64,000 nucleotides of DNA. It comes from Candidatus Uhrbacteria bacterium. Its GTDB lineage: Bacteria > Patescibacteriota > Patescibacteriia > UBA9934 > GWF2-40-263. The DNA lies in NCBI GenBank assembly GCA_026395055.1, contig JAPLZK010000004.1:209432-273431 (forward strand), given 5' to 3'. The first letter of the stretch is position 1. Each line of letters starts with the position of its first letter. The notes beneath the pieces were generated by a model. It was not told where the DNA came from and made no database searches. It saw only the letters and a program-made list of their open reading frames with translations. The position numbers and the translations under genes were made by a program. Below, one piece after another: positions 110 through 60,985 of the stretch.

Positions 110-697
110 TTGACAAATTCTGATTTTATGATATCGTGTTTAGCCGACAAGCACAACGGCCAAGGAGTCCACAGTGTCATGAATCCCACGCAAACCACGA
201 GTGAAGATCATGCAGGAAGCAAGGCGCGACCTGTGACAAGTTTGTTTGGAGCGGATTCACGGATTCGTTCGGAGTGCTTGAATGCATTTCCTGCGTCGCC
301 GGAATTTGCGACGTATCTTGCAAAGCGCATTCTTGCGCTGAATGGATCGATCCTTGTCGCTCAACTGTTCATCAATCAATTCCGTATGTGTTTTCTGGAT
401 TCAACCATCGTGGTTTTACCGGAACACGTGATGCGACTTGGTGTAGATCAGAATCCGCATTGCGTGACGTCTGTGTTCACTGCCTTGCTCACGAACGAAT
501 TTCCCATCATACAGGCGCTCGCCCGACTCGAAATCAACCTGAAGGGTGATATCGAATCCGATGATGCGGTGCACTACACCCAACCAGAACATAAGGCGGT
601 CGACCTTGATCAGCTCGTTCCTTTGCAACACCTCTTCATTTGCGCCTCCGCTATGCTCGTCGGGATCACCATCGATCCACGCGTGCTGGCCGCGTAA
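110..697 (+). CDS. hypothetical protein (weak call)
   Basis: Longest ORF in a GC-rich (~52%) segment. No recognisable motifs, and start and strand are uncertain. Confidence 0.25.
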   Translation: MTNSDFMISCLADKHNGQGVHSVMNPTQTTSEDHAGSKARPVTSLFGADSRIRSECLNAFPASPEFATYLAKRILALNGSILVAQLFINQFRMCFLDSTIVVLPEHVMRLGVDQNPHCVTSVFTALLTNEFPIIQALARLEINLKGDIESDDAVHYTQPEHKAVDLDQLVPLQHLFICASAMLVGITIDPRVLAA

Positions 698-803: not shown

Positions 804-1643
804 ATGTCACAGCAAGCACAGCCCGGCAAGCAGTCGCCGGAAGACAAAGCCAAAGCGGCTCTGGATACTTTTCTCGACCATCCGTTCTGGAGGGAGCTTC
901 CACGGGCGGTTTCGAAAGGGTTCGATCGTGTTGATCAGTTTTTCGAGAAAGGTGAGTTCGACGAAATCCTTGCCGGTGGCGAGGCTTGTGCAGAGCTCAT
1001 TGCAAACGCGTCCCGTCACGTGATGGAGCGTGGACAGTTCGGCGAACCCGAGGCGGCGTTCCTTGCGGCGGCTCGCACGGAGTTCGGACAGAAAAAGAGT
1101 TTCCTCGCAACCACGATCAACTTCATGCAGGCTGTTGTCGGCTCTGTTGATCCGGATGACAAGAAGACTCCGAAGCAAGTGCAGGATCATTTGGATCTCA
1201 TGCGCTTCATCTACATCGCCGCGCGCGACAAGCCGGAACTCCTGGAGCTGCTGAATGACAGCCGCTACAAGAATCTGGATCCGTCCGTGTGCAACAATCC
1301 GAACCTGGACAAGCTCCTCGATGAGCTCGTGAAGAATGGGTGTGTCCATGCGTTGCAGGTGGGCGCGGTCAAGGCCATGCTGTCTCCGCTTCGTCGGAGC
1401 TGGACGGAAGATCGGTGTGCGGCCGCGAGCAAGGCATTTGCCGAGCAGCGCTACCTCCGTGATCAGACCCAGGTTCAGGCGCGGCAGTTCGTCGAAAAGT
1501 CGAGTCTGGAATACCCGAAGGTCGCCACAAAGCTTCTGACGGTTGCGCACGGTCTCCGCGTTGCCTACACAGAAGGTGCGGTCCTGCGCTTCGAAACCAT
1601 TTGCTACATGATGCTCAATGCCTGCAAGGGCGTCCACGCTTAA
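804..1643 (+). CDS. hypothetical alpha-helical protein in a GC-rich (~60%) segment
   Basis: In-frame ATG at 804 with AGAGGT SD 9 nt upstream. A consensus promoter lies upstream and a hairpin plus T8 terminator downstream. The antisense ORF 807..1637 is judged spurious. Confidence 0.6.
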   Translation: MSQQAQPGKQSPEDKAKAALDTFLDHPFWRELPRAVSKGFDRVDQFFEKGEFDEILAGGEACAELIANASRHVMERGQFGEPEAAFLAAARTEFGQKKSFLATTINFMQAVVGSVDPDDKKTPKQVQDHLDLMRFIYIAARDKPELLELLNDSRYKNLDPSVCNNPNLDKLLDELVKNGCVHALQVGAVKAMLSPLRRSWTEDRCAAASKAFAEQRYLRDQTQVQARQFVEKSSLEYPKVATKLLTVAHGLRVAYTEGAVLRFETICYMMLNACKGVHA

Positions 1644-21866: not shown

Positions 21867-21906
21867 AAATCCCCACGGAAACGAAATCCAGTGGGGATTT
21901 TTGTTT
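21866..21906. terminator. bidirectional terminator hairpin atccccac...gtggggat + T-run
   Basis: Sits between convergent genes. Confidence 0.6.
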
Positions 21907-21926
21907 GCGTGAGGGGAGAGGGAGAA

Positions 21927-22349
21927 TCACTTCTTTTTTTGAGAAGCGAGGCAGCAGCCGGTGGTGCGGATTTTTGGAATCTTGCACTGCGTTTCACTTT
22001 CCGGCGTTTCGAGCGCGCAGAAGTAGTGTTGGCACGTATCGGCCACATGTGCGAAGGTTTCGCCTTTGTCGCCTTGCAAGAATTCGATGACGTGGTAGCC
22101 CTTGAGACGACTCACATCGGAGCCACTGGTCACCACTTGCGTTTGGCCTTGATAGGTCCATTCGCAGGTGTAGTCCGCATGGGCTGGAGCAACACATCGT
22201 TCGACCGCGTGGGTTTCATGGCGAACTTCGTTGTTCGTCATGGGCGTGGTCTGGACGTTGTTCGAAGTGGTCGACGAGCAGCCGAAGCCGAGAATGGCCA
22301 CAAGGGCGAAAAAGATTGATCGAACCATGAAGGAACCTCCAATTGCCAA
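21927..22349 (-). CDS. hypothetical secreted protein or lipoprotein, Cys-rich
   Basis: Signal peptide with a lipobox-like LGFGCSS. The probable start is MVRSIFF at 22328. Confidence 0.55.
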   Translation of the reverse strand: MAIGGSFMVRSIFFALVAILGFGCSSTTSNNVQTTPMTNNEVRHETHAVERCVAPAHADYTCEWTYQGQTQVVTSGSDVSRLKGYHVIEFLQGDKGETFAHVADTCQHYFCALETPESETQCKIPKIRTTGCCLASQKKK

Positions 22350-44286: not shown

Positions 44287-44991
44287 ATGTCCGATATTGT
44301 CTCAACTCTAAAAATCCTGAAACGTCGTTTTCCAAATCCGGGTGCGATGGAACTTGGGAGTCCGTATCAGAATCTTGTGGGGGTAATGTTGTCGGCTCGG
44401 ACGCGAGATGAGCAGGTGTTGAAACTCATGCCAGGTTTTTGGAACGCGTTTCCGACAGTCGAGAAACTCGCGAAGGCAACAACGACGCAGATTGAATCTA
44501 AGATCAATACGATTGGCATGTATCGCCAGAAGGCGAAGAATCTAAAAAAGATGGCAATAGATGTCGTTTCGAATTTTGGTGGAAAGATTCCTTCGACCAT
44601 GGAAGACCTTGTGTCTCTCGCAGGGGTTGGTCGAAAGACGGCGAGTGTTGTGCTCGTATGTTCCTTCGATAAGACCGCGATCGCGGTGGATACACATGTC
44701 TTTCGTGTGACGAACCGACTTGGTTGGATCAAATCGAAGACCGTTGAAGATGCGGAGAAAAAGCTTCTCGAGATGGTTCCATCGAAGTATCATCAAACCG
44801 TGAATCGCGTATTCGTGAAACTTGGTCGATACATTTGTATTCGAAGTCCGCGTTGCTGGGCATGTCCCGTTCGAGAGCAATGCGCATTTAACAAAAAGAA
44901 TTTGGTGGCGCCAAAGAATGCGAACGAAATTCTGGAAGACATGGATCGACGAGAAAAGATTCTTGAGACATTAAGAGAAAACGCTACATGA
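44287..44991 (+). CDS. nth: endonuclease III-family DNA glycosylase (HhH-GPD with a 4Fe-4S cluster)
   Basis: LVSLAGVGRKTA HhH-GPD motif and C.....C..C.....C cluster loop. Confidence 0.88.
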   Translation: MSDIVSTLKILKRRFPNPGAMELGSPYQNLVGVMLSARTRDEQVLKLMPGFWNAFPTVEKLAKATTTQIESKINTIGMYRQKAKNLKKMAIDVVSNFGGKIPSTMEDLVSLAGVGRKTASVVLVCSFDKTAIAVDTHVFRVTNRLGWIKSKTVEDAEKKLLEMVPSKYHQTVNRVFVKLGRYICIRSPRCWACPVREQCAFNKKNLVAPKNANEILEDMDRREKILETLRENAT

Positions 44992-45560
44992 AAAATCTCG
45001 ACAAACAGATTTCAAAATGGGTTTATGACCGAGCACATGTGTCGCCTGTTTTGACGCTCCTCGCAAAATTCGGAGCAACGTATGCGATTGGACTCATGGT
45101 TCTTGTCGCCATGTTGTTTCTGTGGCAATCATCTTACGCAAGTGCAAATCCAATGGATTCCATTCAGCCGTTTCTCACAACGATCGGTCTTTCATGGGTG
45201 ATTACGCTTGCGCTACAGTTTATTGTTCGACGTCGTCGTCCATTTGAGTGTGCGATCTATGAAGCAAAGGTAAAGATGTTTTGTAAGACACCGTCGTTTC
45301 CCTCGGCGCATGCAACGATTACGTTTGCGACGGCTTCGTATTTCTTCAATCATTTTTTGTTTGGATATTTTGATCGTGCGTTTTTGTTTGCCGCAATCTT
45401 CTTTTTTCTTGTTGCGATCTGGGTTGCGCTTTCTCGTGTCGCGGTTGGGGTTCATTATGTTTCGGACATTCTTGTGGGGGCGTTGATTGGATTGCTTACA
45501 CCCTGGTTGTTTGTTCTCTTGCTGGTTCTGAGTTGTACATTTACGACAAATTGTATTTAA
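44988..45560 (+). CDS. PAP2-family phosphatase (undecaprenyl-diphosphatase-like)
   Basis: PAP2 motifs RRRRPFE, PSFPSAHA and SRVAVGVHYVSD. Confidence 0.75.
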   Translation: MKNLDKQISKWVYDRAHVSPVLTLLAKFGATYAIGLMVLVAMLFLWQSSYASANPMDSIQPFLTTIGLSWVITLALQFIVRRRRPFECAIYEAKVKMFCKTPSFPSAHATITFATASYFFNHFLFGYFDRAFLFAAIFFFLVAIWVALSRVAVGVHYVSDILVGALIGLLTPWLFVLLLVLSCTFTTNCI

Positions 45561-46119: not shown

Positions 46120-47046
46120 ATGAAGAGAAAATTGTTTTTCGTGTTTGTTTTGTTTCTTGTGATCGTCGTTGTGATCGGCGGAAGTTTTGTGCACGATGTG
46201 TTTTTGATTTCGCCGAAGTCGGATGCGAAGCCGGTGGAGGTTGTTGTGACAGAAGGGGATTCTGTAAATGCTATTGATGTGCATTTAGAAAAAGCGGGTC
46301 TTGTATCACACCCTCTCTTCTTCAAATGGTTCGTCGAATTTACGCATACACAAACCAAGCTTCAGGCTGGAACGTTTTTTCTCACCCCTGGAACTTCGAT
46401 CGCCTCATTGGTTCTCCTTTTATCAAACGTCCAAAATGCCGAAGTGCAAGTGACGATCCCTGAGGGATTCACAAACGATCAGATTAAAGCAAAACTCGTC
46501 GAAGCATTTTCCAAGTTCGATACAATAGAATGGGACAAACAAGCCAGCTCTCTCGAAGGATCTCTTTTTCCAGACACGTATCGGTTCGCGAAGAATGCGA
46601 GCGTAAAAGAGATTGTGGAGAAGATGCGTTCCACGCTTGATCGACGATTGGTGGAAAACAACATTGATTTCTTGAATTGCGACATGTATCAACCTTCCAT
46701 GGGCTCTGTTAGTCCAACGCGATGTGATCTTCATGGCACGCTTGTCCTTGCATCTCTTATCGAGAAAGAAGTGCAGACACCAGAAGACATGAGACATGTT
46801 GCAGGAATATTTTTGAATCGTCTTGCGATCGGGATGCCGCTTCAGACGGACACGTCGAGCTATACGTATAAGAACAAAGGCCTGCCACCATCGCCAATCA
46901 ATAATCCTGGGATGAATGCGATTCTTGCCGTGCTTCATCCAGCACAAACAAAAGATTTATATTTCATCACGCTTCCGAATCATACAACCGTTTACGCGCA
47001 AACGTTTGCAGAGCATATCAAAAATCAACAAACCTATTTGAAGTAA
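46120..47046 (+). CDS. mltG: endolytic murein transglycosylase MltG (YceG-like)
   Basis: N-terminal TM and a YceG-like domain. Confidence 0.8.
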   Translation: MKRKLFFVFVLFLVIVVVIGGSFVHDVFLISPKSDAKPVEVVVTEGDSVNAIDVHLEKAGLVSHPLFFKWFVEFTHTQTKLQAGTFFLTPGTSIASLVLLLSNVQNAEVQVTIPEGFTNDQIKAKLVEAFSKFDTIEWDKQASSLEGSLFPDTYRFAKNASVKEIVEKMRSTLDRRLVENNIDFLNCDMYQPSMGSVSPTRCDLHGTLVLASLIEKEVQTPEDMRHVAGIFLNRLAIGMPLQTDTSSYTYKNKGLPPSPINNPGMNAILAVLHPAQTKDLYFITLPNHTTVYAQTFAEHIKNQQTYLK

Positions 47047-47081
47047 AGAAAAACCCTCGAGAGGTTCGAGGGGGAGGAGAG

Positions 47082-47318
47082 TCACGGCGTGAGTGACACA
47101 AGGGGGGAAGGTGGACGAAGAAGTTTTCTGAGAGCAATGGACTCGATGTTTCGAATCTCCTGTTGGTCTACGCCAAACTGTGTGGCGATTTCTGCGTGAG
47201 AATAAATGGCTTGCTCTCCGACGCCGAATCGCATGCGGATGACTTTTTCTTCCCGCGGGCTTAGACGTGCCAAGACCCTGCGCAAGGCTTCGATCGCACG
47301 ATCGTTATACTCTGGCAT
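47082..47318 (-). CDS. stand-alone sigma-70 region-4 (HTH) domain protein, 78 aa
   Basis: LSPREEKVIRMRFG...HAEIATQFGVDQQEIRNIESIALRKL. AAGAGG SD 6 nt upstream of the ATG. Confidence 0.65.
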   Translation of the reverse strand: MPEYNDRAIEALRRVLARLSPREEKVIRMRFGVGEQAIYSHAEIATQFGVDQQEIRNIESIALRKLLRPPSPLVSLTP

Positions 47319-47471
47319 GGTTTACCTCTTTTTCGTTCGTTTGTTGCGTCTTCTACAACAGAACCCCAGTTCACCAAAAAAAAGCCGTATCGTCAAGCAA
47401 ACCATTGACAAACACGGCTTTTTTTGATACCTTCCGGCCACGACGTCCACAAAAACACAAGGAGGTGTTGT

Positions 47472-48776
47472 ATGTCGAAAGTGGGAAATGTCCAAGGGGA
47501 CAGGCAAGTTGTGTCCGAGCTCGATCTGCATAATCCGCAGTTCGAACGGCGGTCATTCGTTCTTCGGATGCGTGGGTCAAAGGAACAGGAACTCACCATG
47601 CGTTTGCAGGTGCTCGTTCCGCACTCGATGTATTTGGTTCTCGAAGATGGCTATGGCCTGAAGTCGGGGCAGGTGCTCGTGCGCAATTTGGAGATGATGC
47701 GTCGACTCGGTTGCGCAGATGCTCCCTATGACAAGCAGATGTTCGTGCGTTACGACAATTTATTTGATGCGTGTCGCGCAATGTCGCGGTTGAATCCGAC
47801 TTACAAGGCGGAGGAGATTCCGACGATTGAAGCGTGGCAACGTGACCTCGATGGTCTCATGGAACTTACGTGGTCGCTCGAAGTGAAGGATGTTCAGGGG
47901 CAAAACGAGTACAAGACGCGTGCGTTTCAGGCTGTTGCGCCTCACGTAAACGTGGTCAACGTTCATAAGGTAGCGGCGCGCGAGCAGCATGGTCGCGCAT
48001 CAAAGCTCGAGGATCGTTCTGGTCGATTCAATCCGCATCGGTTGCCGCTCATGTTGCTTTCTGTCGACGTCGCTCTTTGGAAGCGGATTCGCGAAGCGCG
48101 TGGTATCGGACACCGTATGGATTTCCGTGCGATGGTGCTCGAGTTGTACATTCATAAGCTCTCGGAGATGGTGGAGGTTACGCGACTCGATCTGGCTCAG
48201 AAGCTCCGCAAGAACGGAGTGTTCGGGTTCGGGCCGAATCGTACGCCGCGTAAGGTGAGTGAAGTTGCGAACCTGTTGTATGCGACGGAAAAGCATTTGC
48301 GTACGCTTACGGCACGTCCGTTCTCGCGTGTGTTTCGAAACGTGGCAAAGGATCTTTCGGAAGCAGCGTCGTTGATGGAAGATGGAGCCACGAATCGTGC
48401 GCCGTCGAAGACCGACGAAGCAAAGCTCTTGTATGTGCATCGCGCGTATCGTTCGCTCGTGCTTGTGCAGAAGCGCTATTTGATTCAGGAAGTCTTGACG
48501 ACCGTTGCGGCGATTCATCACCGCAAGGAAGTCTTGTCCGATGAAGCGATCCAGGTCGCGAAGGATGTCATCGAAGCGTTCCTTGCGGATACCGCAAAGG
48601 ATGAACCGTTCACGAATGAACCGTTCGAAAAGGATTTCCGTCGTCCAGTTTTGCCTCGCGTGCGTGAACATCTCGCAAAGGCTCTCGAGCACCTGAACCT
48701 TGTGCGCGCCGAACCGCTCGGTGAACATACCAAGCATGTGCGCACTGAGCTGAAGTCTGCCGTCGCTCCACTCTAG
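47472..48776 (+). CDS. hypothetical protein, 434 aa, GC-rich, no recognised domain
   Basis: AAGGAGG SD 7 nt before the ATG at 47472. A terminator follows the stop. The antisense ORF 48000..48737 is judged spurious. Confidence 0.6.
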   Translation: MSKVGNVQGDRQVVSELDLHNPQFERRSFVLRMRGSKEQELTMRLQVLVPHSMYLVLEDGYGLKSGQVLVRNLEMMRRLGCADAPYDKQMFVRYDNLFDACRAMSRLNPTYKAEEIPTIEAWQRDLDGLMELTWSLEVKDVQGQNEYKTRAFQAVAPHVNVVNVHKVAAREQHGRASKLEDRSGRFNPHRLPLMLLSVDVALWKRIREARGIGHRMDFRAMVLELYIHKLSEMVEVTRLDLAQKLRKNGVFGFGPNRTPRKVSEVANLLYATEKHLRTLTARPFSRVFRNVAKDLSEAASLMEDGATNRAPSKTDEAKLLYVHRAYRSLVLVQKRYLIQEVLTTVAAIHHRKEVLSDEAIQVAKDVIEAFLADTAKDEPFTNEPFEKDFRRPVLPRVREHLAKALEHLNLVRAEPLGEHTKHVRTELKSAVAPL

Positions 48777-48847
48777 ACACTCACGAATCTCTCATATGAG
48801 GTTCGTTTTTTATTATCCCCTCATGTCTTTTCCACCCCTCGTGCCTC

Positions 48848-48865: not shown

Positions 48866-50977
48866 ATGAAAGAAATTATCCTCAAGGATTCGGTTGCATT
48901 CGACTCAAACATTGATTATCGCAAGGAATTGAATGAAGAACAGCTCGCGGTCGTGGAAAACGGCGACGGGGCGTGTTTGGTATTGGCCGGAGCAGGATCG
49001 GGCAAAACACGAACGATTACCTATCGTGTTGCCTACCTTCTCGAACGTGGCGTCTCACCGCAGAATATTTTGTTGTTGACGTTCACGAACAAAGCATCAA
49101 AAGAAATGCTCGCGCGCGTCGAGCAACTTCTCGGCTCCTATCCAAAAGGATTGTGGGGTGGAACGTTTCACTCGGTCGCGAATCGCATTCTTCGCATGTA
49201 TGCGGACGCGATTGGCTTCACGCAAAACTTTACGATTCTCGATAGTGAAGATTCTGAGTCGCTCATCAAAACGATTTTAAAAGAATTGAATGTCGACACA
49301 AGTGAGCGCAGATTTCCATCTGCATCAAAACTCAACTCGATTCTAAGTTACGCACGCAATGCCGGTCGATCAGTGAAACAGATCGTCGAGGAAAAACATG
49401 AACACTTCTTCGATTTGATCCCAACCATTCAGCGTATCGGTGAAGTTTATGAATTGCGCAAACGACAAGCGGACGCCATGGACTTTGATGACTTGCTTAT
49501 TCGTCTTCGCGATCTTCTTGTCCAGAATCCCGTTGTGCGCGATCGCCTTGCCACGCAGTTTGAATATGTTCTTGTGGATGAGTATCAGGATACGAACGTG
49601 CTTCAGGCACAACTGATCGCCATGCTCGCAAGCGTGCATAAAAATATTCTTGTCGTGGGTGACGATGCGCAGTCTATCTATTCGTTTCGTGCCGCCGAAA
49701 TTAAAAATATTTTATCGTTTCCAGATCAGTATGGAAGTGCAAAGACGTTTAAGTTAGTAACAAACTATCGTTCCAGTCCGGAAATTCTCTCCATCGCAAA
49801 CGAGTCTATTCACAATAATCGCAATCAATTTAAAAAAGATTTAACGGCTGTTCGAGAAAGTGCAGAAAAACCACAGCTTATTCCTGCAGCAAACGCACAA
49901 CAAGAATCGCAATTTATTTCGCAGCAAATCATTACGTTGCGTGACGCAGGGACGCCTCTTCGCGAGATTGCTGTGCTTTTTCGCGCCGCCTTCCACTCGC
50001 AAGCATTGGAGTTCGAGCTGATGCGCAGAGATATTCCTTATGAATATCGTGGCGGACTCAAGTTTTTCGAGAGAGCACACGTGAAAGACATTGTGATGCA
50101 TTTACGCCTCAAGGCGAACTTAAAAGATGAAGTAGCATGGATGCGGGTACTCGGATTGCAGACCGGTATCGGACTTGTGACCGCACAGAAGATGATTCAA
50201 CAGATTCATGGATTTGAATCCCTCGAAGAACTTGTCGAACATCCCATTGGAAGCGGCGCACGCGCATCGGCCGGATGGAAAACGCTTTCGACAACATTAA
50301 AAAAATTTACAACGCAATCAACTCCCTCAGAGTTGATTCGTACGGTTGCATCGAGCGAGTATCGAGCTTATCTCGAAGCAGAATACCCAGACTTCAATGA
50401 TCGTTGTGAAGATATTGAGCAGTTTGCGGTTTTCGCCGAGCAGTACAAAGATCTCACAACATTTTTGACGGATGTTTCACTCACGGCGGATTACGGAATC
50501 ATGACAGAGGAAACACATGGCGATGAAGAGCGATTGATTCTCTCAACCATTCACCAGGCAAAAGGACTCGAGTGGGACGCGGTGTTCATTATGAGTCTTG
50601 TTGATGGAAAGTTTCCAAATGGACGTGCGCTTGAAGAACGAGACGGTCTTGAAGAAGAACGTCGTTTGTTCTATGTCGCAACAACCCGCGCAAGAAAATA
50701 TCTTTACTACACGTACCCGCTCGTCTCTGGAACCGAATCACTTTTGTTCAACCAGCCATCGATGTTCCTTCAAGAACTTGATCCTGCTATGATGGAAGAG
50801 GTGAAATTAAAACGCGAGGTCGCAAAAACAACTTCGTGGAACACAACCGAATGGGATTCCTCCACCTGGGATTCGTCCGACAGTGATGATGGCCCCGCGA
50901 TTGTTCTTGATGATTTGGGGGAAGAGGTAAAGAAGAAGGGAATAAAATCAAGCGGGAGTTTTTTGAGGGATGTCTAG
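48866..50977 (+). CDS. ATP-dependent DNA helicase, UvrD/PcrA/Rep family
   Basis: Helicase motif I GAGSGKT at the N-terminus and UvrD-like motifs through the C-terminus. Confidence 0.9.
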   Translation: MKEIILKDSVAFDSNIDYRKELNEEQLAVVENGDGACLVLAGAGSGKTRTITYRVAYLLERGVSPQNILLLTFTNKASKEMLARVEQLLGSYPKGLWGGTFHSVANRILRMYADAIGFTQNFTILDSEDSESLIKTILKELNVDTSERRFPSASKLNSILSYARNAGRSVKQIVEEKHEHFFDLIPTIQRIGEVYELRKRQADAMDFDDLLIRLRDLLVQNPVVRDRLATQFEYVLVDEYQDTNVLQAQLIAMLASVHKNILVVGDDAQSIYSFRAAEIKNILSFPDQYGSAKTFKLVTNYRSSPEILSIANESIHNNRNQFKKDLTAVRESAEKPQLIPAANAQQESQFISQQIITLRDAGTPLREIAVLFRAAFHSQALEFELMRRDIPYEYRGGLKFFERAHVKDIVMHLRLKANLKDEVAWMRVLGLQTGIGLVTAQKMIQQIHGFESLEELVEHPIGSGARASAGWKTLSTTLKKFTTQSTPSELIRTVASSEYRAYLEAEYPDFNDRCEDIEQFAVFAEQYKDLTTFLTDVSLTADYGIMTEETHGDEERLILSTIHQAKGLEWDAVFIMSLVDGKFPNGRALEERDGLEEERRLFYVATTRARKYLYYTYPLVSGTESLLFNQPSMFLQELDPAMMEEVKLKREVAKTTSWNTTEWDSSTWDSSDSDDGPAIVLDDLGEEVKKKGIKSSGSFLRDV

Positions 50978-55529: not shown

Positions 55530-56168
55530 TTACACGGGCTGGAATTTTCGAATCACGGCACGAACGACTCCTTGAATAATACAGTCTTGAACGTAAATAG
55601 GATCCATGGTTTTGTTTGCGGGTTGTAAGCGAATGCGGGATGGTTCACGGTAAAATCGTTTGAGGGTTGCAAAGGCATTGTCGAGAAGAGCAACGACGAC
55701 TTCGCCGTTGCGTGGAGATGGATTGCGCTCAATGACGACGAAGTCTCCGTCTAAAATTCCGTCTTCGATCATGGATTGGCCTTTGATTTTGAGAACGTAG
55801 GAGTTTGCACCGTCTAGGACAAAGCTTGCGGGGACGGCCATGGTTTCGTTGTCGTTGATGGCTTCTATAGGTTGTCCGGCGGCGATGAGTCCCATCATGG
55901 GCAAATTCACGACATCTGCGGAAAGTCGGAAGCCTCTGTGGATAGGTTCGGCTTGGGGGACGAGTTCAATGGATCTAGCTTCGCCTTCTTCTCCGATACG
56001 GATCATGCCTTTGTCTACAAGGCTTTGGATGTGTCCATGCACGGTTGCGGAAGAGGAGAGGCGAAAGTGTTCACCGATTTCCCGGTAGGACGGGGCGTAT
56101 CCGCAGTCATCAAGGTGTTTTTTGATGAATGCGAGAACTTCGTTCTGCTTTTTTGTTAAGTTACTCAT
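55530..56168 (-). CDS. lexA: LexA repressor
   Basis: N-terminal wHTH, AG cleavage site (LIAAGQPIEA), S24 peptidase Ser and Lys (GQSM, KRF). Confidence 0.9.
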   Translation of the reverse strand: MSNLTKKQNEVLAFIKKHLDDCGYAPSYREIGEHFRLSSSATVHGHIQSLVDKGMIRIGEEGEARSIELVPQAEPIHRGFRLSADVVNLPMMGLIAAGQPIEAINDNETMAVPASFVLDGANSYVLKIKGQSMIEDGILDGDFVVIERNPSPRNGEVVVALLDNAFATLKRFYREPSRIRLQPANKTMDPIYVQDCIIQGVVRAVIRKFQPV

Positions 56169-56207
56169 ACGTGTGTGGGGAAGTATTCCCGTTTGCGAAA
56201 TTTAATC

Positions 56208-56249
56208 GTTCGCGTTATGTTCGTATTCTAAACCGAACAAAAAGCGAAC
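56208..56249. promoter_or_regulatory. candidate LexA operator: two GTTC-N7-GTTC direct-repeat boxes in inverted orientation (56208-56222 and 56235-56249)
   Basis: gttcgcgttatgttc on the plus strand and gttcgctttttgttc on the minus strand. Located 40 nt upstream of lexA and about 85 nt upstream of metK. Confidence 0.5.
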
Positions 56250-56331
56250 GCAAGAAGGTGTATGTGGATAAGTCTGAATCGATAAGAAAGAGTTGGAGAT
56301 TGAGTCAAAATTTGTTACTCTGTGCGCACTT

Positions 56332-60409: not shown

Positions 60410-60432
60410 AAAACCTGACCGTTTAGATCAGG
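60410..60432. terminator. hairpin cctgaccgtttagatcagg with an A7 flank (terminator for the minus-strand gene)
   Basis: Overlaps the stop of the 60428..60985 gene. Confidence 0.45.
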
Positions 60433-60985
60433 CGAGGCGCAGATTTCGGTTGTATCTCTTTCCAGTGCAAAACTCGTATTTTTCCCAGGTGGGACAATTT
60501 GGGTTGTTGCACATTTCAACGAACTTCTTTTCGACGTCGACGATGGCCCCGCATTCGCAGGTCCATGTTTTGTGTGCTTGGACACCGTGATAGGTGTCGA
60601 ATCCGCAATGTAGCTTGCGTTGTTCGCGTTCGATCCACCAGATAACGGCTGAGAATAAGTCTTCGAAGTCCTCGTCTTTTTTGAGGAGTTGAAGATCGAA
60701 TTCGTGTCGAATGAACAGATCTGAGTCTGCGAGGGCGGGATGTTTCCGCGAAGAGTCGAAGTCTAAACGCGTGATCTTTCTTTGCATCAGGCCAACGACG
60801 CATGGGCGCAGTTTGTTTGCGAGTCCGTGCGGAAGGCTGTCGAATGTGGTCGTGAGCGCTCTTGGGGTGTAAAAGTGCGCCCAGTCCTTGTCGTGGAGAT
60901 CAGGGACAATGACAAGACGCACAGAAGGCGGGGGTGGGGTATAAACGCGTTCTTCACCAAATTCTTCTGACGCATCTTCGGACAT
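60428..60985 (-). CDS. hypothetical protein with a C-terminal zinc-ribbon (CEC...C..C) and acidic N-terminus
   Basis: 185-aa ORF divergent from the nuclease gene. No domain recognised. Confidence 0.5.
   Translation of the reverse strand: MSEDASEEFGEERVYTPPPPSVRLVIVPDLHDKDWAHFYTPRALTTTFDSLPHGLANKLRPCVVGLMQRKITRLDFDSSRKHPALADSDLFIRHEFDLQLLKKDEDFEDLFSAVIWWIEREQRKLHCGFDTYHGVQAHKTWTCECGAIVDVEKKFVEMCNNPNCPTWEKYEFCTGKRYNRNLRLA

Follow-up and report, generated by a model that had tools for sequence, protein, structure and literature searches.

The 64,000-nucleotide (nt) stretch analysed here (the window; all coordinates are positions in it) comes from a metagenome-assembled genome of Candidatus Uhrbacteria, in the candidate phyla radiation (CPR, or Patescibacteria). 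Between yceG/mltG and a gene for a UvrD/PcrA-family helicase it carries two divergently transcribed genes that may well have different histories: X434, which encodes a basic protein of 434 amino acids (aa; 47472-48776, + strand) and would be the resident of the site, and a gene for a 78-aa protein that consists of sigma-70 region 4 only (47082-47318, - strand) and would be an accessory to it. The two open reading frames (ORFs) are present as the original prediction placed them, 434 aa on the plus and 78 aa on the minus strand, and their products are 100% identical to NTX72_05885 (X434) and NTX72_05880 (the 78-aa protein). The further proposal that the pair is a horizontally acquired island does not hold: the same yceG-X434-uvrD slot is found in all relatives examined, the excess of G+C recurs in them, and no phage or transfer RNA (tRNA) signal accompanies the pair. 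Our judgement that X434 is lineage-specific, vertically inherited and fixed between yceG and uvrD is an evenly balanced one; the gene opposite it is exchanged or lost between lineages.

The residence of X434 is seen most directly in the order of its neighbors. Related loci are labeled L001 to L020 and individual proteins P0019, P0021, P0035, P0072 and P0284; the locus search was made with the narrower of two X434 alignments (A1), the broad family alignment (A2) being too divergent for search patterns, and returned four genome loci and four metagenome loci only. In every related locus X434 belongs to one block of genes, enolase - iPGM - endonuclease III - PAP2 - cytidylyltransferase - YceG - X434 - UvrD - malic enzyme. 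It lies between YceG (46120-47046, +, in the window; PF02618 in the orthologs of all related loci) and UvrD (48866-50977, +) in L001-L006, L010 and L019, the last of which keeps the whole block at an X434 identity of 25%; YceG stands directly upstream in L012 (P0035, 28% identity), UvrD and malic enzyme directly downstream in L011 (35%), and UvrD directly downstream in L020 (P0072, 22%). UvrD is thus the most constant neighbor, with PF00580 (UvrD-helicase) found downstream even at 22-35% identity, and over 10 loci the identity of X434 follows that of UvrD (Spearman 0.79). The absence from the same site in relatives by which an island would be recognized is not seen for X434, though the 78-aa partner is patchy. 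The window contains no tRNA and the yceG-uvrD interval no integrase-like ORF (flanking direct repeats were not specifically searched); X434 has no relatives in IMG/VR viral contigs, BFVD or phage records, and no match among the PADLOC defence models. One of the loci, L009 (CAYOCD010000004.1), is labeled 'uncultured Gammaproteobacteria bacterium' and carries an Uhrbacteria-type endonuclease III - PAP2 - cytidylyltransferase - YceG - X434 series; the contig is probably mislabeled or misbinned.

The local peak of G+C (GC) content, from which the idea of an island started, is borne out by sliding-window analysis, and the composition of the stretch is not uniform. At 0.535, the interval 47082-48776 ranks 39th among 62,306 sliding segments of 1695 nt (mean 0.458, standard deviation 0.019), the highest of which (0.536) starts at 47053. 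The region-4 gene has a GC content of 0.532, X434 of 0.546 and mltG of 0.440; taken by ORF, X434 has 0.544, and 0.619 at third codon positions (GC3), against means of 0.461 (standard deviation 0.030) and 0.441 (standard deviation 0.075) for the ORFs of the window. X434 is, however, GC-richer than its flanks not only in the window but in all 16 related loci tested, over backgrounds of 42-66% GC (for example 0.539 against 0.421, 0.595 against 0.518, and 0.709 against 0.657). Since the excess recurs in every genome examined, it is a property of the family and not the mark of a recent import; the same is argued by the long residence of a gene that carries its compositional offset wherever it is found. 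The excess comes from a composition rich in Arg, Ala, Val and Leu and poor in Ile and Asn (R 9.9%, V 9.7%, A 8.8%, I 2.1%, N 3.7%), together with the high GC3. GC3 is not evidently coupled to high expression in any simple way, as the glycolytic genes for PGK and enolase in the window have an ordinary GC3 of 0.35-0.45; recombination with GC-biased gene conversion could be a cause, although this is speculation. As a point of method, what resembles an island by its local GC peak can be a trait inherited with a gene family, and it is the comparison of orthologous loci that distinguishes the two.

Other GC-rich ORFs are found in the window. Those at 179-697 (+) and 804-1643 (+) have GC contents of 0.514 and 0.575 and GC3 values of 0.555 and 0.689, and form the only other stretch of the window at a GC of at least 0.52. 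Their products are acidic to neutral (isoelectric points (pI) of 5.4 and 6.6), with no resemblance to X434 that is obvious by eye; the ORF at 179-697 is preceded by a TTGACA / TGnTATCGT promoter and an AAGGAG Shine-Dalgarno (SD) sequence, much as in X434, while the mechanical ORF 546-1643, which overlaps 804-1643, and its antisense 807-1637 have no Pfam match. Two further ORFs with raised GC, 21891-22319 (+; 0.545) and 60428-60985 (-; 0.513), also lack a Pfam match; the former may not be a real gene, as the opposite strand has an ORF of similar size there.

X434 changes fast for a gene so constant in position. It is 43-69% identical between loci where UvrD, endonuclease III and the cytidylyltransferase are 79-99% identical, and its ratio of nonsynonymous to synonymous divergence (dN/dS) is 0.21-0.5, against 0.03-0.09 for UvrD; the protein evolves about 5-10 times faster than UvrD and is still under purifying selection. 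At synonymous and four-fold degenerate sites, the closest relative of the window is L003 (0.38 for uvrD, 0.38 for the region-4 gene, 0.46 for the cytidylyltransferase), whereas its X434 and YceG lie at four-fold divergences of 0.55 and 0.56, as far from the window as those of any locus, on about 100 sites per gene. That the locus nearest by uvrD has the most divergent X434 (43% identity) weighs against the residence of X434 in its strict form, as inheritance has not been purely vertical. There is moderate indication of allele replacement within the clade, or else of very uneven rates, at X434 and YceG of L003, and it is as such a moderate sign of exchange among relatives, not as the import of an island, that a horizontal origin retains some ground. 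X434 is also not the only fast-evolving gene of the block: among L001-L005, PAP2 (44988-45560 in the window) and YceG/MltG (46120-47046) are 32-56% and 47-75% identical, where their neighbors are 79-99% identical.

The second gene of the pair encodes, as predicted, a sigma-70 region 4 and nothing else. The 78-aa protein matches Sigma70_r4 (PF04545) over residues 15-66 (E=1.9e-11; 43.7 bits, cut-off 24.1), with r4_2 as its only other match in Pfam; its top NCBIfam match is RpoD region 4 (E=1.7e-15), its best PHROG match the region-4 end of RpoD-type sigma factors, and its sole PADLOC match the region-4 end of MzaA, and it aligns without gaps to residues 543-602 of E. coli sigma70. Region 2, which binds the core enzyme and recognizes the -10 element, is not found in it by Pfam, the maximal ORF itself being 78 aa long; no sigma motif occurs elsewhere in the window, and the GerE/LuxR profile of Pfam gives no match at E<=1. 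Orthologs of exactly 78 aa occur in three further lineages (about 90% identity in P0019, 71% in L003, 50% in L005/L006), and this length is kept, with the same start and stop context, across all four at 50-93% identity. Nonsynonymous differences per site (pN) are far below synonymous ones (pS), with dN/dS at 0.2-0.36 and dS near saturation. The gene has its own SD sequence (AGAGGT, 47324-47329, -, read in the sequence), its own promoter, and its own terminator (47054-47072, -, from the terminator scan; also inverted repeat I6), a hairpin CCCTCGAACCTCTCGAGGG followed by TTTTTCTTTA. Upstream of it are 153 base pairs (bp), filled by promoters, and 35 bp separate its stop codon from that of yceG, so that remnants of regions 2 and 3 would not fit in. 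The constant length, the selection and the lack of such remnants alongside speak against a fragment of a disrupted sigma factor, a reading the original prediction had itself raised; to judge by its sequence, the gene is real, accessory, and derived from the region 4 of a primary sigma factor.

What sets the protein apart from its source is the recognition helix. In region 4.1 (LSPREEKVIRMRFG) and in the last helix (IESIALRKL) the protein is nearly identical to primary sigmas, and the recognition helix reads DQQEIRN in the window in place of TRERIRQ. In E. coli sigma70, residues R584, E585, R586, R588 and Q589 contact the -35 element. The corresponding changes in the 78-aa protein are R584Q, E585Q, R586E and Q589N (Q52, Q53, E54 and N57 of the window protein), and R588 is kept (R56). 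The four orthologs have DQQEIRN, DQQEIRD or THEDIRA at this place (VDQQEIRNIESIALRKL, VDQQEIRDVESIALRKL or ATHEDIRAIELRAIKKL), and all RpoD-type matches inspected keep the canonical VTRERIRQIEAKALRKL. This apparent loss of contact residues shifts weight away from simple binding of a consensus -35 element. A profile search with the family brought up the four 78-aa proteins and one 133-aa protein that joins a zinc ribbon to a sigma4 domain, and after these the C-termini of primary sigmas (46-58% identity). The 133-aa protein (P0021, on a 1018-nt ENA contig) has its zinc-ribbon-like segment, of the form CxxC...CxxC, at the N-terminus; its region 4, which shares 45-47% identity with the 78-aa protein, retains KERIRQ.

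In related loci, the place opposite X434 is taken by any of three partner types or by none. The 78-aa partner is divergent from X434 in three loci, the window, L003 and L005/L006; the fourth such protein, P0019, is on a 515-nt contig without context. L004 has a 245-aa partner that ends in the C-terminal domain of the RNA polymerase alpha subunit (alpha-CTD; RNA_pol_A_CTD, PF03118, 37.4 bits, cut-off 23.8), and the same protein occurs in L007 and in L015-L017. In L002, a 377-aa partner contains Sigma70_r4 (24.2 bits) followed by RNA_pol_A_CTD (25.9 bits), both just above their cut-offs. No partner is found in the close lineages L001, L008, L009, L010 and L018, nor in the more distant L012 and L019. 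The alpha-CTD is confirmed by comparison with solved alpha subunits (PDB 6wmp_B, E=1.2e-7) and with Salmonella RpoA (40% identity over 75 residues). Residues 142-216 of the 377-aa protein match the 78-aa protein (E=2e-7), starting from a shared Met-Pro, and the longer protein keeps the equivalents of E585, R586, R588 and Q589. In the alpha-CTDs, as read from the alignment, the counterparts of R265, N268 and G296 (E. coli numbering) are retained, and that of K298 is Phe.

All three types have the same promoter, TTGAC(G/A/C) - 17 nt - TGnTGAACT, which is conserved in all five partner-bearing loci irrespective of the type of partner (alignment A6); in the window it comprises TTGACG (47391-47396), a 17-nt spacer and TGAACT (47368-47373) with TG upstream of it (47368-47396, -). 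The common promoter suggests that the three types derive from one divergent transcription unit by loss and gain of domains. This unit appears to have been gained in a Uhrbacteria-proximal ancestor, after the split from the partner-less outgroups, and to have been lost several times since; the partners themselves are, as their domains indicate, separately encoded copies of sigma region 4 and the alpha-CTD, the two parts of RNA polymerase that read a promoter's upstream half. What recurs between lineages is X434, which all related loci examined carry, and not the pair, as the 78-aa partner is swapped or lost. Nor do the rates of the two genes co-vary: between the window and L003, X434 is 43% identical and the 78-aa protein 71%. 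The description of the locus as a regulator-effector module therefore applies only loosely, the partner being optional and at least five close lineages having the X434 promoter without it.

The expression signals of X434 are all found as predicted. Its promoter (47405-47433, +, read in the sequence) has TTGACA at 47405-47410, a 17-nt spacer and TACCTT at 47428-47433, with TG at 47425-47426; it is not listed by a simple consensus scan, TACCTT agreeing with TATAAT in three of six positions, and in 11 loci TTGACA is invariant and the extended -10 element, TGnTAyCnT, nearly so. The conserved 5' untranslated region (UTR; 47434-47471, +) presents the SD sequence AAGGAGG (47459-47465) between the complementary arms AACAC and GTGTT, 6 nt from the ATG at 47472; this is the start codon, conserved in all orthologs, the mechanical ORF beginning at TTG 47424. 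Promoter and UTR (about 40 nt; CGCTTCGACTCAACCAAAACACAAGGAGGTGTTGCATG) are about 90% conserved where the proteins are 43-69% identical, and this holds also at 43-46%; Rfam yields only chance hairpin matches in this 5' region and no family. Downstream is an intrinsic terminator (48783-48816, +, from the terminator scan), with a hairpin at 48783-48806 and a T-run.

The promoters of X434 and of its partner face away from each other at close quarters. In the window, the two -35 hexamers are placed back to back, with 7 bp between them, in the 25-nt loop of a perfect 12-nt inverted repeat, AAAAAAAGCCGT / ACGGCTTTTTTT (repeat I1; 47377-47425, no strand). This repeat corresponds to the hairpin that terminates yceG where no partner is present. 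In such partner-less loci (5895-5935 in L001; also L008, L009, L010 and L018), terminator and promoter overlap: the sequence is GGAAGG-ATTGACAnAn-CCTTCC-TTTTTTT, with the TTGACA of X434 in the loop of the yceG terminator and the T-run leading into the extended -10 element TGnTAyCnT.

The protein X434 appears to belong to an undescribed family of Uhrbacteria-related CPR bacteria, with a confidently modeled fold that matches no other. That it would lack a recognizable domain had been predicted, and this holds across the profile, structure and viral libraries searched: Pfam, NCBIfam, PHROGs and PADLOC give no match, Pfam finds nothing consistent in 10 distant family members and then in 46 members, and BFVD contains no structural counterpart. 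Against PDB sequences, the X434 profile has a single hit below E=0.09, the designed coiled coil sc-apCC-4 (8a3k, E=0.00079), which is uninformative. A relation between X434 and the partner proteins is rejected by hhalign (probability <1%). There are 17 close homologs (43-100% identity), and a profile search reaches 158 clusters at E<=1e-3, of which 71 remain at E<=1e-10 and 42 at E<=1e-30; almost all members are 380-450 aa long, and the family is basic (median pI 9.5, and 9.5 for X434 itself). Strongly conserved are the polar residues R102, E115, K166, D181, R185, N187, R205 and R219, as well as G66 and P283. The AlphaFold (AF2) model, computed from a 135-sequence alignment with high confidence (predicted local distance difference test, pLDDT, 95.6; predicted template modeling score, pTM, 0.91), consists of a short N-terminal helix, a small β domain (residues 24-94 or so) and long helices of up to 57 residues (97-431), and retrieves only generic helical bundles in a structure search. 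From the basic character, the invariant Arg/Lys/Asp/Asn cluster, the strong expression signals and the unbroken adjacency to UvrD, we would guess, tentatively, that X434 is an abundant binder of nucleic acid or of another phosphate-rich ligand and works with the UvrD helicase or the transcription machinery. Two points count against this guess: neither experiments nor relatives in structure or sequence point to a function for X434, and it may stand next to uvrD simply because gene order is conserved.

From the anatomy, homology, synteny, composition and selection seen at the locus we infer a mechanism for the partners, in which we have somewhat less than even confidence: they would act on the shared divergent control region, tuning the transcription of X434 and their own. 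The -35 hexamers would take the sigma4 domains of the partners and the A/T runs flanking these hexamers their alpha-CTDs, and binding there would damp transcription in both directions. The contact residues kept in the 377-aa partner and in the alpha-CTDs fit such a role in DNA binding. The 78-aa form fits it poorly, on account of its degenerate reading head, and this is the first of several observations that speak against the mechanism: with the changes listed above, the recognition helix goes from net positive to net negative, which is unfavorable for DNA binding. Further, the two -35 hexamers are 7, 7, 7, 4 and 34 nt apart in five loci, which disfavors one conserved dimeric operator. Finally, lineages that lack a partner have essentially the same X434 promoter as those that possess one, so that the partner cannot be required for X434 expression.

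The condition of the recognition helix would be better explained if the 78-aa protein were a mimic or decoy of sigma region 4, competing for the β-flap tip or titrating a factor that binds region 4, an alternative we consider unlikely though the strongest of those that follow. Region 4 is the docking site of the β-flap and of anti-sigma factors, and it is region 4.1 and the last helix that have stayed nearly as in primary sigmas, while the base-contacting positions are replaced in four of four orthologs and the RpoD-type matches inspected retain VTRERIRQIEAKALRKL. As the partner always adjoins X434, the titrated factor could be X434 itself, in the manner of Rsd or AsiA, and the alpha-CTD partners would then be equivalent decoys. 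Decoys of this kind are known, the sigma mimicry of PhyR being an established mechanism (PMC4598750). Nevertheless, there is no evidence of contact between the proteins, and X434 shows no similarity to any anti-sigma factor, a search for Rsd_AlgQ or AsiA likeness having failed by sequence and by fold. X434 is kept, with strong expression signals, in many lineages that have no partner, the two proteins do not co-vary in rate between the window and L003, and the 377-aa partner, with E585, R586, R588 and Q589 in place, is compatible with DNA binding.

An extension of mimicry to the whole set of partners makes X434 the target, and we regard it as improbable: X434 would be a CPR factor directed at RNA polymerase, binding sigma region 4, the alpha-CTD or both, and possibly coupling transcription to the neighboring UvrD helicase. 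A free sigma4, a free alpha-CTD or the fusion of the two would each titrate it, in a partner switch like that of PhyR and NepR but assembled from duplicates of polymerase parts and independent of phosphorylation, and the DNA-contact residues lost from the 78-aa form would mark a decoy that is kept off promoters.

Slightly less probable again is the recent acquisition of the pair as an island from a GC-richer donor. The interval does form the GC maximum of the window, the L003 locus combines an X434 and YceG as divergent as those of distant relatives with a close uvrD and region-4 gene, and in other genomes the gap between yceG and uvrD holds lineage-specific orphan genes, among them a Bro-N gene. 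Yet relatives down to 22-25% identity all share this slot between yceG and uvrD, the GC excess recurs whatever the background, the tRNA, integrase, phage, viral and defence searches gave no match, and the divergence of X434 follows that of uvrD, which leaves room for allele replacement within the clade at most. A split sigma factor, in which the 78-aa protein would join a separate region-2 protein to read a novel -35 element, comes just behind in our estimate. Two-subunit sigma factors exist, as in SigO-RsoA of Bacillus subtilis, and in the 78-aa protein the recognition helix is changed without being destroyed, R588 and the helix-turn-helix scaffold being kept; but there is no region-2 protein nearby, no region 2 or 3 signal in X434 or in the N-terminal domains of the partners and no sigma motif in the rest of the window, half of the lineages do without the gene, and an alpha-CTD, as carried by the sister partners, is unfit for a sigma role. 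Least probable of all is a functionless remnant of a 377-aa-type gene or of the 3' end of a duplicated rpoD, which the internal alignment from the shared Met-Pro and the outright loss of the gene in several lineages might suggest, but which the constant length and context in four lineages, the selection on the protein, the conserved signals of its own and the lack of flanking frameshifted remnants, with only 35 bp between its stop and that of yceG, all contradict.

Two observations from the surroundings of these genes may be added. Lineage-specific genes have gathered between X434 and uvrD (L002 7476-10066, L004 6431-7694, L005 5111-6858, L009 5405-8182, L010 5353-6234): L002 has three ORFs there, of 240-297 aa, L004 has three that are 83-170 aa long, and L005 has one of 255 aa together with a Bro-N protein. 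The gap ORFs scanned have no Pfam match, and the window has no such genes; the interval between yceG and uvrD seems to be a hot spot of orphan genes. In the window, the lexA gene (55530-56168, -) is preceded by a nested palindrome, TTCGC-N5-GTTCG-N10-CGAAC-N5-GCGAA (56195-56250), a candidate for the LexA operator of this lineage. On reading the sequence, no palindrome of this type was seen in the promoters of X434 or its partners.

CPR bacteria have tiny genomes with few recognizable regulators, and the control of their transcription is largely unknown. At the locus described here, one lineage has repeatedly kept, swapped and lost free sigma4 and alpha-CTD modules, and once fused them, always beside X434. 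Should the partners act as promoter occluders or decoys, they would represent a simple and undescribed way of building regulators from the parts of RNA polymerase; X434, for its fixed place beside UvrD, would be a candidate for a new factor associated with transcription or repair. The literature on region-4-only or alpha-CTD-only proteins and on CPR sigma biology offered nothing specific, and no description was found of a paralog set of polymerase modules that includes a fusion of sigma4 and alpha-CTD.

Among the closest known counterparts of the 78-aa protein is the region 4 of RpoD/SigA, to whose C-termini it is 46-58% identical and whose helix-turn-helix scaffold it keeps. It differs in that it is encoded by an independent gene without regions 1-3, and therefore cannot be a sigma factor, and in that its -35-reading residues are changed, with only R588 kept. 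Stand-alone regulators of the GerE/LuxR type, which are transcription factors of about 75 aa, consist likewise of nothing but a sigma4-like DNA-binding domain of four helices; the 78-aa sequence, in contrast, belongs to the sigma-70 region 4 family proper. PhyR, of the alphaproteobacterial general stress response, offers one possible mode of action, having a sigma-like domain that serves as a decoy and not as a reader of promoters (PMC4598750). PhyR is built of ECF-type (extracytoplasmic function) sigma2- and sigma4-like subdomains and a receiver domain, and acts through phosphorylation and NepR; the 78-aa protein has none of these. The partners in L004 and L002 carry true homologs of the RNA polymerase alpha-CTD, but in place of the alpha N-terminal domain they have N-terminal regions of unknown nature, joined in L002 by a sigma region 4. 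The architecture of the 78-aa protein is shared by the proteins of about 75-95 aa with Sigma70_r4 only that NCBI annotates as 'sigma factor-like helix-turn-helix DNA-binding protein' (for example P0284, 79 aa, on a 5.2-Mb contig), some of which may be truncated rpoD calls. To our knowledge, none of these short region-4-only proteins has been functionally characterized. Those inspected keep VTRERIRQIEAKALRKL, whereas the 78-aa proteins of Uhrbacteria have a diverged recognition helix and a fixed position beside X434; they are a new form of this little-studied group.

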